Shown here: positions 1,488 through 57,266 of the stretch, piece by piece | How positions within the stretch are numbered: the first letter of the stretch is position 1 | Layout: each line of letters begins with the position of its first letter | Source of the DNA: Eledone cirrhosa | Taxonomy: Eukaryota | DNA length: 64,000 nt | Direction of reading: 5' to 3' | NCBI GenBank assembly: GCA_964016885.1 | Contig: OZ024766.1 | Coordinates: 11,160,001-11,224,000, forward strand | Notes under the pieces: generated by a model | What the model was told of the DNA's origin: nothing | Seen by the model: the letters and a program-made list of their open reading frames with translations, nothing else | Databases searched by the model: none | Program-made: the position numbers and the translations under genes

Positions 1488-1541
1488 CTGCTATATATAT
1501 TTCAGTGACCTCATCATATTGGCTGTGACCTCATCAGGCAG
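1488..1541 (-). ncRNA. Type I hammerhead ribozyme motif
   Basis: CUGC-CUGAUGA-stem II (degraded)-GAAA-UAUAUA-UA-GCAG. Confidence 0.6.
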
Positions 1542-1729
1542 TAAGAATTTAGGCAGAAAAAACGGGAAAATATGATGTTATAATGGGTTCTACTCTGTTA
1601 ATTTATCGATATGTCCAGCTCCTGGATGTGTTGATAGTCCTCAAAGGAACTGGAATTCTTTGAGGGCTAACAACTGAGGGGCCTTTACGAACTAAGTTCA
1701 AATCCCACCCAGGATAACTTTGCCTGTCA

Positions 1730-2272
1730 TCCTTATGGGGTCGATAAAATAAAGTACCAGTAATACACTGGGGTAACTGCTGGCCTTGTGCCTAAAGTAG
1801 AAACAATTATTACAGGGTCGATAAAATAAAGTACCAGTAATACACTGGGGTAATTGCTGGCCTTGTGCCAAAAGTAGAAACAGTTATTACAGGGTTGATA
1901 AAATAAAGTACCAGTAATACACTGGGGTAATTGCTGGCCTTGTGCCAATAATAGAAACAATTATTACAGGGTTGATAAAATAAAGTACCAGTAATACACT
2001 GGGGTAATTGCTGGCCTTGTGCCAAAAGTAGAAACAATTATTACAGGGTTGATAAAATAAAGTACCAGTAATACACTGGGGTAATTGCTGGCCTTGTGCC
2101 AAAAGTAGAAACAATTATTACAGGGTTGATAAAATAAAGTACCAGTAATACACTGGGGTAATTGCTGGCCTTGTGCCTAAAGTAGAAACATTTATTACAG
2201 GGTTGATAAAATAAAGTACCAGTAATACACTGGGGTTATTGCTGGCCTTGTGCCTAAAGTAGAAACAATTGT
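1730..2272 (+). repeat. 77-bp tandem array (~7 units) derived from the SINE B 3' half
   Basis: GATAAAATAAAGTACCAGTAATACACTGGGGTAATTGCTGGCCTTGTGCC recurs at 77-bp spacing. Confidence 0.92.
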
Positions 2273-2291
2273 TACTATCTTACGGACTTAC

Positions 2292-2387
2292 CTGATTGAG
2301 ACCAACATGTACAATTTCAAACTTCTTCTTGTAGTTGACTTTCTTCAGGGTACTGTTGAAGAGCTCCACACCACCACACAGGGTACC
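2292..2387 (-). CDS. IFT172: IFT172 exon 9 (GTLCGGVELFNSTLKKVNYKKKFEIVHVGLNQ); gene continues beyond window start
   Basis: 96 nt; TAG acceptor and GTAAGT donor; conserved GTLCGGVE.F; exons 1-9 total 1005 nt with an open frame. Confidence 0.93.
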
Positions 2388-2420
2388 CTAGAGGGGAGTA
2401 GATATAGGGGTACATTACAG

Positions 2421-3040
2421 CGGTTTGTGTCAGGTAAAAGTACCACAGACGCTCTTTTCCTTGTACGACAACTACAGGAGAAGTACCTATCTAAAAGTAA
2501 ACCTCTATACTTAGCTTTTGTCGACTTGGAGAAAGCCTTTGACAGAGTCCCCCCGCTCCATTATCTGGTGGGCCCTTAGAAAACTAAGTGTTGATGAATG
2601 GCTTGTGAGAGATATACAAGCCATGTATAAAGAAACAGTCAGCAAGGTTAGAATTAACAACGAATATAGTGAAGAATTTAGCGTAAAAGTTGGCGTCCAT
2701 CAGGGCTCTGTTCTCAGCCCCCTACTATTTATTATTGCCCTTCAGGCTATAACAGAGGAGTTCAAGACAGGCTGCCCATGGGAACTCCTATACGCAGATG
2801 ACCTGACACTCATAGCGGAATCAATGGCCGAGCTAGAGAAGAAATTCCAAACATGGAAGCACGGCCTAGAGTCAAAAGGACTTAAAATTGCCCTTCAGGC
2901 TATAACAGGGGAGTTCAAGACCGGCTGCCCATAGGAACTTCTATATGCAGATGATCTAACTCTCATAGCTGAATCGATGGCTGAACTAGAGAAGAAATTC
3001 CAAACATGGAAGCATGGCCTAGAATCAAAAGGCCTTAAAG
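2421..3040 (+). mobile_element. RTE LINE internal RT fragment (frameshifted, with internal duplication of the YADD segment)
   Basis: FVSGKSTTD...FVDLEKAFD...QGSVLSP...YADD, nearly identical to the 12.8-15.9 kb element. Confidence 0.9.
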
Positions 3041-3042
3041 TT

Positions 3043-53502: not shown

Positions 53503-55040
53503 TTGAAATACATGGTTCCTATTTAAATTAAAACCTTCCAACATAATTTTATATAAGAACCTTACATTAAGTTCCTATCTTAGTAATGGAATAATTTTAG
53601 TAAATCCCTCAAAAGTCTTCGTTAATTGAAATACATGGTTCCAGTTTAAACTTAAAACCTTCCAACAATTTTATATAAGAACCTTACATTAAGTTACTGT
53701 CTTAGTAATGGAATAATTTTAGTAAATCCCTCAAAATTCTTCGTTAATTAATTGAAATACATGGTTCCAGTTTAAATTAAAATCTTCCAACATAATTTTA
53801 TATAAGAACCTTACATTAAGTTAGTCTTAGTAATGGAATAATTTTAGTAAATCCCTCAAAATTCTTCGTTAATTAATTGAAATACATGGTTCCAGTTTAA
53901 ATTAAAATCTTCCAACATAATTTTATATAAGAACCTTACATTAAGTTACTGTCTTAGTAATGGAATAATTTTAGTAAATCCCTCAAAATTCTTCGTTAAT
54001 TAATTGAAATACATGGTTCCAGTTTAAATTAAAATCTTCCAACATAATTTTATATAAGAACCTTACATTAAGTTACTGTCTTAGTAATGGAATAATTTTA
54101 GTAAATCCCTCAAAATTCTTCGTTAATTAATTGAAATACATGGTTCCAGTTTAAATTAAAATCTTCCAACATAATTTTATATAAGAACCTTACATTAAGT
54201 TCCTATCTTAGTAATTGTTTCTACGTTTGGCACAAGGCCAGCAAATACCCAGTGCATTACTGGTACTTTATTTTATCGACCCCGTAAGGATGAAAGGCAA
54301 AGTTAACCTCGACGGGATTTGAACTCAGATCGTAAAGGGACGTAACTATGCTGGAAAATAGTAATGAAATAATTTTAGTAAATCCCTCAAAATTCTTCGT
54401 TAATTGAAATACATGGTTCCAGTTTAAATTAAAATCTTCCAACATAATTTTATATAAGAACCTTACATTAAGTTCCTATCTTAGTAATGAAATAATTTTA
54501 GTAAATCCCTCAAAATTCTTCGTTAATTGAAATACATGGTTCCAGTTTAAACTTAAAATCTTCCAACAATTTTATATAAGAACCTTATATTAAGTTACTA
54601 TCTTAGTAATGAAATAATTTTAGTAAATCCCTCAAAATTCTTCGTTAATTAATTGAAATACATGGTTCCAGTTTAAACTTAAAACCTTCCAACATAATTT
54701 TATATAAGAACCTTACATTAAGTTAGTCTTAGTAATGGAATAATTTTAGTAAATACATCAAAAGTCTTCGTTAATTGAAATACATGGTTCCAGTTTAAAC
54801 TTAAAACCTTCCAACATAATTTTATATAAGAACCTTACATTAAGTTAGTCTTAGTAATGGAATAATTTTAGTAAATACCTCAAAAGTCTTCGTTAATTGA
54901 AATACATGGTTCCAGTTTAAACTTAAAACCTTCCAACATAATTTTATATAAGAACCTTACATTAAGTTACTGTCTTAGTAATGAAATAATTTTAGTAAAT
55001 ACCTCAAAATTCTTCGTTAATTAATTGAAATACATGGTTC
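53503..55040. repeat. ~120-124 bp AT-rich tandem repeat (~11 units) interrupted by a SINE B copy at 54213-54358
   Basis: TTGAAATACATGGTTCC recurs throughout. Confidence 0.92.
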
Positions 55041-55069
55041 CTCTCCCAACATAAATTCTTCATTATATA

Positions 55070-55242
55070 CCGTATTTCCCGGCGCCAAAGACGCTACTTT
55101 CCCCCTAAAATAAGTCTCAAAAATCTACCATACATCCAGGAGGCCAAAGGCTGCATTTTTCATTAGTTTTTTTCAAATTTTTTGTTGTCAAATTTAGGGT
55201 GCACCTTAGAGGACGTAGGGTCTTCGGCGCCGGGAAATACGG
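55070..55242. mobile_element. pogo/Tc1-mariner-type MITE, intact; split copy at 41494-41551 + 43628-43746; half copy at ~6509-6613
   Basis: TIRs CCGTATTTCCCGGCGCC.AAGAC / GTCTT.GGCGCCGGGAAATACGG; TA on the left flank. Confidence 0.8.
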
Positions 55243-55679
55243 TCACAAATGGATATTTAAAAAAAAAAATATATATATACAAGCTATAAAAATTGTAGAG
55301 AGGACCCGTTCCGATACTTACCGAAAGTCGGTCTAAACGAAAGTGAAAAGCCGTAACCACTTAGCGACTACACATATATACATGAGAGAGAGAGAGAGAG
55401 AGAGAGAGAGAGAGAGAAATAGAGTGGGAGAAAGTAAGTGAGAGGGGGGAGTGAGAGTATATATATATATATATATATATATATATATATATATATATAT
55501 ATATATATATATATATATATATATATATAGTTATTCCTGCTACTATACACACGTTTACTTTGTAAGTGGGAACAAGAGGTAAGTTTTGCAATAGTCATGA
55601 GAGAGAGAGAGAGAGAGAGAGAGAGAGAGAGAGAGAGAGAGAGAGAGAGATAGATAGATAGATAGATAGATATACACAC

Positions 55680-56023
55680 ACGATATATTAACAAATGGGA
55701 ACTATATTTATAAAACCATATTTATTTCATTATACATATTTCAAGGACACCAAGTTAAAATTATGGTGTGCTTTCATCAGATAAAATATAATATAGAGCA
55801 GTTTTATAAATAAATATTGACATACCCTTAAAGAATGCGACCATGTTGGTTGGAAGCTCCCGGATAGTCTTTTAAGGGTATGTCAATATTTATTTATAAA
55901 ACTGCTCTATATTATATTTTATCTGATGAAAGCACACCATAATTTTAACTTGGTGTCCTTGAAATGTGTATAATGAAATAAATATGGTTTTATAAATATA
56001 GTTTCCATTTGTTAATATATCGT
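55680..56023. mobile_element. Fold-back element with hammerhead motifs (55723-55788 minus; 55915-55980 plus)
   Basis: ~150-bp inverted arms around a ~40-bp spacer; same family as the 39.0-39.3 kb element. Confidence 0.78.
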
Positions 56024-57060
56024 ATTTTTACTCAAATATTTTGTTGAGTGCTTTATATCAGTTATAATATTTGCTTGTTGTATCCCAACAATTTAAATCG
56101 AACTTCTATATATATATATATATATATATATATATATATATATATATATTTTATTCATTTTATATATATATATATGTATGGAATTGTGTATAATTTTGAA
56201 ACTATATATATATATATATATATATATATTTCGAGATATCTCTTCTTCAGAGGGAAGTAAAGGGGTTAATCCAGTGTTCTAATTAGCTTGCCAAGTCATA
56301 TATATATATATATATATAGTAATTGTTTCTACTTTAGGCACAAGGCCAGCAATTACCCAGTGCATTACTGGTACTTTATTTTATCGACCCCGTAAGGATG
56401 AAATGCAAAGTCAACCTCGGTGGGATTTGAACAATATATATAGTAATAATAATAAATGTGAAGACTAAAATCCAAAGGGGGCTCGATAAGGATAAATATA
56501 TATCATATAAGAACCGTAGAGCAAATATTTATTAAAATAACAGATTAAAGTTTAAGCAAAGAATCGCTGCTTTCACCCTTAACGGGATCTTCTGATTCTT
56601 TGCTTAAAATTTAATCTGTTATTTTAATAAATATTTGCTCTACGGTTCTTATATATTTGATATATATTTATCCTCATCGAGCCCTCTTTGGATTTTAGTC
56701 TTCAAATTTATTATTATTGTTACTATATATATATATATATATATATATATATATATATATGAGAGAGAGAGAGATTTTATTCATTTCATATGTATATATA
56801 ATTGTTTAATTGTTTCTACTTTTGGCACAAGGCCAGCAATTACCCAGTGCATTACTGGTACTTTATTTTATCGACCTCGTAAGGATGAAAGGCAAAGTTA
56901 ACCTATATAATATATATCAAAATAAATTAACTGAGTCATAAACTCGCGTTGGTTTTCCCTGTACATTGATAAACATTCTCTCTCTCTCTAAGGAAGTCGA
57001 GTAAATTTTGAGATCGTGTGTGTGTGTGTATATATATTATATATATATTATATATATATA

Positions 57061-57266
57061 TATAAGATCAAAAGATGGTTAAATGAGTTCCATGTATTTT
57101 ATTATGCGCATTTCAAAAACAAATATCATCATGCAATAACATTTGTGTTTTCATCAGATAAAATAGGACATGATGAAAACACAAATGTTATTGCATGATG
57201 ATATTTGTTTTTGAAATGCGCATAATAAAATAAATGGAACTCATTTAACCATCTTTTGATCTTATA
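57061..57266. mobile_element. Fold-back element with a hammerhead motif (57095-57165 minus) and a truncated partner arm
   Basis: UAUUUUAU-CUGAUGA-AAACACAAAUG...UAUUUGUUUUU-GAAA-UGCGCA-UA-AUAAAAUA; related to the 10088 copy. Confidence 0.75.

Follow-up and report, generated by a model that had tools for sequence, protein, structure and literature searches.

What carries the small hammerhead ribozyme motifs that are dispersed over a 64,000-nucleotide stretch of the Eledone cirrhosa genome (assembly GCA_964016885.1, contig OZ024766.1, positions 11,160,001 to 11,224,000; hereafter the window), and by which route did they come to lie there? An original prediction, made from the letters of the window, had placed 17 type I hammerhead cores in several TA-flanked element families and had assigned them to non-autonomous ribozyme-bearing retroelements. 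The analysis reported here favours another bearer: with a probability of roughly 85%, the cores are hammerheads of the pseudo-long terminal repeats (pLTRs) of Penelope-like retrotransposons (Penelope-like elements, PLEs), likely of the Hydra clade, and the pieces seen in the window are element ends, likely inserted into (TA)n by the element's own protein, which joins a reverse transcriptase (RT) to a GIY-YIG endonuclease. These end pieces are 200–400 bp long, and most of them form inverted pairs in which two arms meet head to head and one of the two carries a tail. Penelope elements with hammerheads of palindromic stem III are already known, a Hydra family of Octopus among them; the two new leads are the pile-up of 5' ends and the inverted pairs made of two families, both described below.

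Hammerhead cores in the window

All 17 cores of the form CUGANGA...GAAA-N6-UH, N6 being the six nucleotides of stem III, were found again where they had been placed, with C3 at 1537−, 4723−, 10150−, 10271+, 10999−, 11523−, 11727+, 38405−, 38498+, 39097−, 39209+, 46215+, 47917−, 48140+, 55780−, 55923+ and 57157− (the sign gives the strand). The type I core positions C3-A9, G12-A14, A15.1-U16.1 and H17 are in order in every one of them, H17 being A in 15 and C in 2, and the three classes of N6 that had been described are present as a Watson-Crick palindrome (8 cores), a palindrome with G-U pairs (7) and a segment with a single mismatch (2); a palindromic helix III, the trait of the PLE-type dimer hammerheads, is thus found in 15/17. 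Helix II is closed and helix I open, with at least 4 contiguous pairs of stem I in 13/17 cores. The canonical G10.1-C11.1 pair occurs in none of the 17, all of which have U before GAAA (U at 11.1), and a loop 1, which canonical motifs use for tertiary contacts with loop 2, was not seen in the 8-bp helix I of families A, B and C. Two further partner cores, at 11284+ and 57170+, are degenerate (C3 -> A).

A strict descriptor, which combines N6 with a stem I of at least 5 contiguous pairs, recovers 12 of the 17 cores, against a mean of at most 0.01 and a maximum of 1 in dinucleotide-shuffled DNA (300 shuffles for each of three block sizes). The enrichment over shuffles is therefore clear by this descriptor, whereas a scan of the window with the Rfam models (E<=1) gave no hammerhead family among the 150 matches listed of 166, these being microsatellite-driven miRNA and weak tRNA-like matches only. 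The cores sort into at least seven families, A to G, where at least six had been claimed. An eighteenth, small hammerhead-like core lies at 760 (+), which has a 12-nt stem II and is itself truncated by a (TG)n run; its intact relatives, with a CAAUUG palindrome, are present elsewhere (locus L096, 8016). At least 18 more hammerhead families occur in the loci collected from the genome, with a palindromic stem III of 4, 6, 7 or 8 nt.

The structure is also seen to be kept across copies. Among 95 candidates from 584 kb of DNA (window, neighbours and spaced stretches), in which neither trait had been filtered for, N6 is palindromic in 45/54 with a stem I and in 6/41 without it (Fisher p 1.5e-11, for copies that are related and hence not independent). 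When all loci are collapsed to 25 hammerhead families, stem III is a Watson-Crick palindrome in 16, with 13 different palindromes (null mean 0.8, maximum 5), and in 19 if G-U pairs are allowed (null mean 2.1, maximum 8). An alignment of 22 rows from the A, C and D types has 94% of its cells paired, compared with 34–53% in slid controls, a figure favoured by the structure having been taken from the same sequences; 12 of the 21 pairs change on both sides, as high a value being reached in 0/500 shuffles, and in helix II, which thus covaries, this holds for 8 of 9 pairs. From their sequences, these are real hammerhead motifs, selected in the source elements, and their self-cutting is a prediction.

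Parent elements

As had been noted before, no Penelope-type open reading frame (ORF) was found in the 64-kb window. One of 30 family A loci, L012, led to a broken Hydra-like ORF with the family A unit as a direct repeat at both ends, and the C-terminal half of this ORF gave 107 near-full matches at 87–100% identity among the 115 scored of 87,607 candidates. Eight loci fetched for long frames include stop-free ORFs of 743 amino acids (aa) in L065 and L066 and a frame of 751 aa in L063, all with the family A hammerhead in their flanks. The order in L066 is (TA)n, an inverted arm with tail, a direct pLTR with tail, a short 5' untranslated region (UTR), the ORF, a 1.8-kb 3' UTR, the hammerhead and (TA)n. 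Family A thus has the layout of endonuclease-bearing (EN+) Penelope elements, with pLTRs in partial tandem, an inverted 5' copy and a tail at one end, and the attribution of the motifs to Penelope-type elements is borne out.

The family A protein carries the motifs RIRWR, DKT, YRDD, CxCX5C, YVG, CxxC and CxH, while GxKF/Y was not found in it; apart from RWR replacing RWK, these motifs match the description of the Hydra clade (Craig et al., 2021; PMC8557442; here and below, published work is quoted from the accessible portions of the papers), and their order agrees by eye with that of Hydra-1_Obim. The CCHH motif is absent, as in Hydra elements. A structural model of the protein (mean predicted local distance difference test score, pLDDT, 77) has telomerase RTs as its top 8 PDB fold matches, and its profile is collinear over 476 columns with an RVT_1 plus GIY-YIG Penelope ORF of this genome; family A therefore has the single ORF, with a telomerase-like RT and a GIY-YIG domain, of EN+ PLEs. 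The nearest named relatives of the protein are from Argonauta hians (39–41%). On motif grounds, the parent elements likely belong to the Hydra clade, and the Hydra-type elements of this genome escape both Pfam and Rfam.

For the other families 20 long loci were fetched. Pieces of a Hydra-like ORF lie in line upstream of the hammerhead in families D (L230, L231), F (L237–L240), B (L223) and C (L226), and an ORF piece is likewise linked to family C in L143; four other long copies of B and C and three of D have no ORF piece in line. In family G, one locus has the piece in line (L358) and two have it head to head (L351, L366; 3/25 loci in all). Apparent links of B at L128 and L130 and of E at L163 were rejected as separate insertions, and so was that of E to a Penelope-type ORF in L234, because a TA run separates the two and the ORF has its own repeats. 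That ORF belongs to a separate Penelope-type element of a second PLE clade (L234, 2833–5312, +), with DKG, RVT_1, GIY-YIG and direct repeats of its own. The linkage to RT and GIY-YIG frames is thus established for family A, and Hydra-like pieces are found next to B, C, D, F and G, so that the label of non-autonomous retroelements or retrozymes does not hold for six of the seven families. Only E looks non-autonomous: it forms a unit of about 1.9 kb in five long loci, in direct tandem in two of them, and is the single family here that is likely non-autonomous. In L236 (2304–4410, −) the non-coding unit stands in direct tandem and runs from hammerhead to hammerhead; it is the best candidate here for a circular RNA.

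Insertions, ends and two-family pairs

The pieces of the window are as follows (core positions are those of C3):

1456–1660 (−), solo D-related arm; core 1537, with cleavage predicted after 1492
4611–4830 (−), solo E-related arm; core 4723, a single mismatch in N6
10051–10225 (−), family B arm without tail; core 10150, head-to-head with a family C arm, no TA run between
10221–10471 (+), family C arm with tail; core 10271, terminates in (TA)n
10803–11164 (−), family D arm with tail; core 10999
11142–11384 (+), inverted partner of family D without tail; degenerate core 11284 (C3 -> A), absent from the earlier list
11422–11627 (−), family E arm without tail, end of a 1.9-kb non-coding unit; core 11523, interrupted stem I
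11627–11832 (+), family A insertion: inverted tail piece 11627–11675 and forward arm without tail; core 11727
38144–38410 (−), family F arm without tail; core 38405, stem II 79 nt, stem I 3 bp
38411–38492 (no strand), joint between the two F arms, where the 5' half of the core recurs in short 31-bp repeats
38493–38823 (+), family F arm with tail; core 38498
38998–39124 (−), family A arm without tail; core 39097
39160–39400 (+), family A arm with tail; core 39209
46131–46317 (+), solo family A arm without tail; core 46215, begins at the family A modal 5' end
47678–47938 (−), family G arm with tail; core 47917, older family whose other copies are 76–83% identical
47997–48240 (+), family A insertion: inverted tail piece 47997–48055 and forward arm without tail; core 48140
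55680–55866 (−), family A arm without tail; core 55780
55860–56108 (+), family A arm with tail; core 55923, 95% identity to the 3' end of the ORF-bearing copy L069
57065–57174 (−), family B arm without tail; core 57157
57165–57360 (+), tailed family B arm; core truncated at its first base, 57170, absent from the earlier list

Six head-to-head pairs with their 3' ends outward can be recognized (10051–10471, 10803–11384, 38144–38823, 38998–39400, 55680–56108 and 57065–57360). In the usual pair one arm ends about 45–70 nt past the predicted cleavage site, the other has an extra tail, and both adjoin (TA)n. Two further insertions, at 11627 and 47997, open with an inverted tail piece; a reading of these as miniature inverted-repeat transposable elements was rejected because the apparent terminal inverted repeats are the inverted tail pieces.

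The same arrangement is found across the genome. Among 143 loci, window copies excluded, 78 have an inverted arm of the same family, 51 have none, 10 exceed the locus and 4 have another inverted match. An exact pattern of A facing A matched 2,656 times on one strand and 2,654 times on the other (control 0), most loci being counted on both. From 70 loci chosen by the core pattern alone, 11 of which were dropped as two-family, TA-separated or not A, 59 A/A pairs were scored, with one tail in 48, none in 7 and two in 4. Within 264 kb around the window, none of the 10 pairs of cores closer than 400 bp is in tandem and all are head-to-head. A TA run follows 124 of 140 arm ends and 665 of 6,400 random places (10%), so that the TA-flanked nature of the elements is confirmed. 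Each family has two fixed 3' end points, with or without tail, and inserts end 45–230 nt downstream of the predicted cleavage site and never at it.

At the other side, arms are at most 400 bp long in 29/29 cases for family A and 19/19 for family B, and the short arms run seamlessly into the 3' UTR of ORF-bearing copies. Their 5' ends cluster at one modal site per family, always upstream of the start of the search query: in A it lies 86 nt before C3 (21/44 ends within 4 nt of it), in B 69 nt (15/29), in C 64 nt (12/27), in D 122 nt (12/28) and in G 37 nt (10/24). The modal sites are mostly a pyrimidine-C followed by A (initiator-like), and TATATAAA lies about 30 nt upstream of them in families C and G. 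In six of the seven families the inner end point is followed by a GAGYRC motif, a candidate protein-binding site that could position the start of reverse transcription. A second GAGYRC copy (L066, 2760–2880) stands just before the family A start codon, right after the outer end point.

The pair at 10051–10471 joins two families: its B arm is tailless, its C arm has a tail, and the two are not separated by a TA run. Two patterns aimed at such pairs gave 74 and 13 matches (controls 0), of which 70/74 and 13/13 were examined; most are A/A pairs with a point change. Six are direct two-family joints, with one tail in L250, L271 and L311, both arms tailed in L313 and L330, and the tail state of L341 unscored; in six other cases a TA run lies between the arms, and these are likely independent insertions. 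Such joints amount to about 0.2% of the A/A pairs. One tail is present in 4/6 scorable joints, compared with 81% of same-family pairs and with the 50% expected from deletion between neighbours. The direct joints are of the types A-B, A-C, A-D-like and B-C, in which palindrome compatibility is confounded with family relatedness, and no joint of A with E, F or G was found among the 13 matches.

Abundance

Cores with a palindromic stem III number 11 in the window and 18 in 200 kb of its neighbours, and 15 per 240 kb of large contigs and 7 per 80 kb of small contigs in a spaced sample (32 stretches, 320 kb in total, chosen at round coordinates), while shuffled controls gave at most 0.08. The window is therefore about three times richer than the spaced sample, and outside it there is about one core per 11–16 kb: the motifs are very abundant, as had been proposed, but the density of about one per 4 kb holds only locally. 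Scaled up to 3.0 Gb, the 22 cores per 320 kb would make about 200,000 (approximate Poisson range 130,000–310,000), a number which, together with the stop-free parents, points to a very large burst of Hydra-type Penelope elements.

Proposed mechanism and alternatives

According to the reading given at the outset, transcription would start at the initiator-like site of the upstream pLTR, 35–125 nt before the core, and the protein would nick both strands of (TA)n. Reverse transcription would then begin downstream of the ribozyme, at either of two sites within the RNA: a start at the leader copy would give a run-off cDNA of 200–350 nt across the uncut hammerhead, and one at the 3' copy would give long or full-length inserts. 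Two cDNAs, one per strand, would be joined head to head. As monomers the hammerheads are predicted to be poor, and cutting would need the element's protein or else a partner RNA that pairs by way of the 8-nt self-complementary stem III. The modal 5' ends are likely transcript starts and most short copies likely run-off cDNAs of the RNA leader, which would mean that the template had crossed an uncut hammerhead; most genomic copies are likely dead. The promoter and the start site of Penelope lie within the pLTR (PMC2377424, PMC3846280), and the Poseidon protein of the anole nicks and extends in vitro both strands of AT-rich DNA, reverse transcribing uncut RNA from two internal sites that define the tail, with a hammerhead that cuts only with the protein (PMC11167929). 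The two 3' end points of each family fit the two internal start sites of Poseidon.

Several observations weigh against this reading. The loci are the best-scoring copies of each search and not a random draw; the 5' ends of families E and F are scattered, with no pile-up, no evident TATA box precedes the site in B or D, and a strong stop of reverse transcription or TA microhomology could also produce sharp 5' ends. The assignment to the Hydra clade rests on motifs: the family A ORF has no Pfam family above cut-off, its protein found no match in a PDB sequence search, RWR stands in place of RWK, and family A, because of its 1.6–1.8-kb 3' UTR, reaches about 4.2 kb and exceeds the Hydra norm of under 3 kb, which is a tendency. 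The ORF links of B and G consist of one to three broken loci, the sole C locus with ORF and element in line has no endonuclease part, and family E has no ORF, its longest stop-free stretch being 88 codons with no tblastn match. As to the cores, four window copies have a weak or broken stem I (3 bp only at 38405 and 38498, interrupted at 11523 and 46215), and U4 is changed to C in 9/20 family F copies.

These last two points would also suit the idea, to which we give hardly any credence, that AT-rich microsatellite DNA has yielded the motifs as chance or decayed matches with no selected structure, as would the silence of Rfam among the matches listed and the burial of the core in the minimum-energy folds of several copies. 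The shuffles, the association of stem I with palindromy (in related copies), the palindromic families and the two-sided changes reported above refute it as to selection on the source elements; single copies may be inactive. Metazoan non-LTR retrozymes, which are tandem monomers of 150–450 bp cut by the hammerhead and spread via small circular RNAs, share the type I topology, the AT-richness and the great abundance, and have been proposed to derive from PLE pLTRs (bioRxiv 10.64898/2026.07.22.740005). The direct tandem of family E at about 1.9-kb spacing is in line with them, and the direct pLTRs of L069 differ at 1/165 positions, compared with 3–4 for the inverted arm, as rolling circle would give, although that difference is too small to weigh and shared private variants are too few. 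The absence of tandems among the close core pairs, insert ends that never fall at the cleavage site and the tie of six families to ORFs make this origin very improbable.

Closer to the original prediction, and somewhat less improbable, the short copies might be independent mini-elements, non-autonomous but equipped with an internal promoter, whose solo or inverted copies are transcribed and which Hydra proteins mobilise in trans. The uniformly short A and B arms with sharp 5' ends, the internal promoter of Drosophila virilis Penelope (PMC2377424) and the ORF-less tandem unit of family E can be so explained. Against this, the short arms continue seamlessly into the 3' UTR of ORF-bearing copies, families C and G have their TATA-like boxes upstream of the modal 5' end, in a part that short copies no longer contain, and no private lineage of short elements came to light. 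The run-off of leader cDNAs by Hydra-type elements is thus preferred.

For the inverted pairs of PLEs, self-priming on an antisense template has been proposed (PMC3846280). The two-family joints would fit a break whose two sides were primed by separate RNAs, and would then speak against self-priming, but with one tail in 4/6 scorable cases they may also stem from deletion or recombination between neighbours. A more daring suggestion, which we consider doubtful, is that the stem III palindrome is kept mainly as an RNA dimerisation signal: transcripts would pair, a dimeric RT-GIY-YIG protein would prime one RNA at each side of a (TA)n break, and head-to-head insertions, mostly of leader run-off cDNAs, would follow. 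If this is true, the two-family insertions (10051–10471 and six more) are direct fossils of two RNAs per event. The dimer initiation site of retroviruses is an analogue of such a palindrome. Thousands of young insertions can serve to test the origin of Penelope inverted pairs, and they bear on why the ribozyme is kept though it is dispensable for insertion in vitro.

Comparison with known systems

Among described elements the closest is Hydra-1_Obim, which comes from Octopus bimaculoides, targets (TA)n and bears a hammerhead (Craig et al., 2021; PMC8557442). With the Hydra clade of that paper the elements share the single ORF with a C-terminal GIY-YIG domain, DKT, the CxCX5C linker, CxxC and CxH, as well as the (TA)n target, the hammerhead near the 3' end, the inverted 5'-truncated copy, the tail at one end and, with many listed Hydra hammerheads, the U before GAAA. 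They differ in length (about 4.2 kb), in tails of about 90–200 nt compared with 30–40, in RWR for RWK and, from the listed Hydra-1_Obim motif, in a stem II of 26–79 nt and a 6-nt palindrome; Hydra-1_Obim was built from few copies, while here there are about 10^5 ends.

Palindromic helix III hammerheads in PLE pLTRs, with a dimer model and low activity in vitro, have been reported (PMC4209133; reviewed in PMC6765202). Those found here are likewise of type I, with a long helix II and a palindromic helix III for dimer folding, occur mostly as solo copies from truncated PLEs, in several families per genome, and form opposite-strand pairs 100–700 bp apart (opposite-strand pairs: PMC4209133). By contrast, they have the G10.1-C11.1 pair in 0/17, a helix I of up to 8 bp and, in families A, C, D and G, a helix II whose 3-bp base is separated from a long upper helix by a one-by-one pyrimidine mismatch; their counts far exceed the 2,000–9,000 reported. 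Collectively they offer a naturally occurring set of hammerhead variants that lack the G10.1-C11.1 pair.

Anole Poseidon (Anolis carolinensis; Frangieh et al., 2024; PMC11167929) is similar in its two fixed 3' end points, which define a tail downstream of the hammerhead, in its AT-rich target and in inserts that cross the uncut ribozyme, but it belongs to another clade. In the present elements the start codon comes after the hammerhead and both end points, and six of the seven families have a shared GAGYRC behind the inner end point. Like the present copies, metazoan non-LTR retrozymes (Cervera and De la Pena, 2020; PMC7229834; Li et al., 2026, preprint) are abundant AT-rich repeats with type I hammerheads and a relationship to PLE pLTRs, and family E resembles them in being non-coding and in tandem. 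The lack of coding capacity is limited to E, as A–D, F and G are tied to ORFs, and in place of the tandem arrays of 150–450 bp, none of which was seen, the copies are dispersed and inverted, in a head-to-head layout that matches PLEs (PMC8557442) and not short tandem retrozymes (PMC7229834). In the literature searched, Craig et al. (2021) was the only relevant paper on octopus or cephalopod hammerheads, and the searches turned up no prior statement of the run-off or two-family observations, within an accessible portion that covers few subscription papers.

Other features of the window

An exon matching IFT172 (E 1e-9) lies at 5037–5222 (−), with a second likely exon at about 10620–10750 (−). 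Because of the former, several cores are likely intronic: 10150, and also 4723, 10999 and 11523, likely lie in sense within IFT172 introns, where monomer activity, if any, would matter to the host. A stop-free frame of 1063 aa at 12774–15965 (−) belongs to an RTE-type long interspersed nuclear element (endonuclease, RVT_1, PHD-like finger), broken copies of which are found at 2515–4053 and 6498–7331, and a 407-aa frame with zf-RVT at 23938–25161 (+) is the 3' part of another non-LTR retroelement. Weak tRNA-like matches at 323–380, 7840–7897 and 47302–47359 are likely heads of tRNA-derived short interspersed nuclear elements. Minisatellite arrays occupy 16427–17950 (40-bp units), 25856–27560 (129/153-bp), 31880–33030 (36-bp) and 41468–43525 (140-bp).

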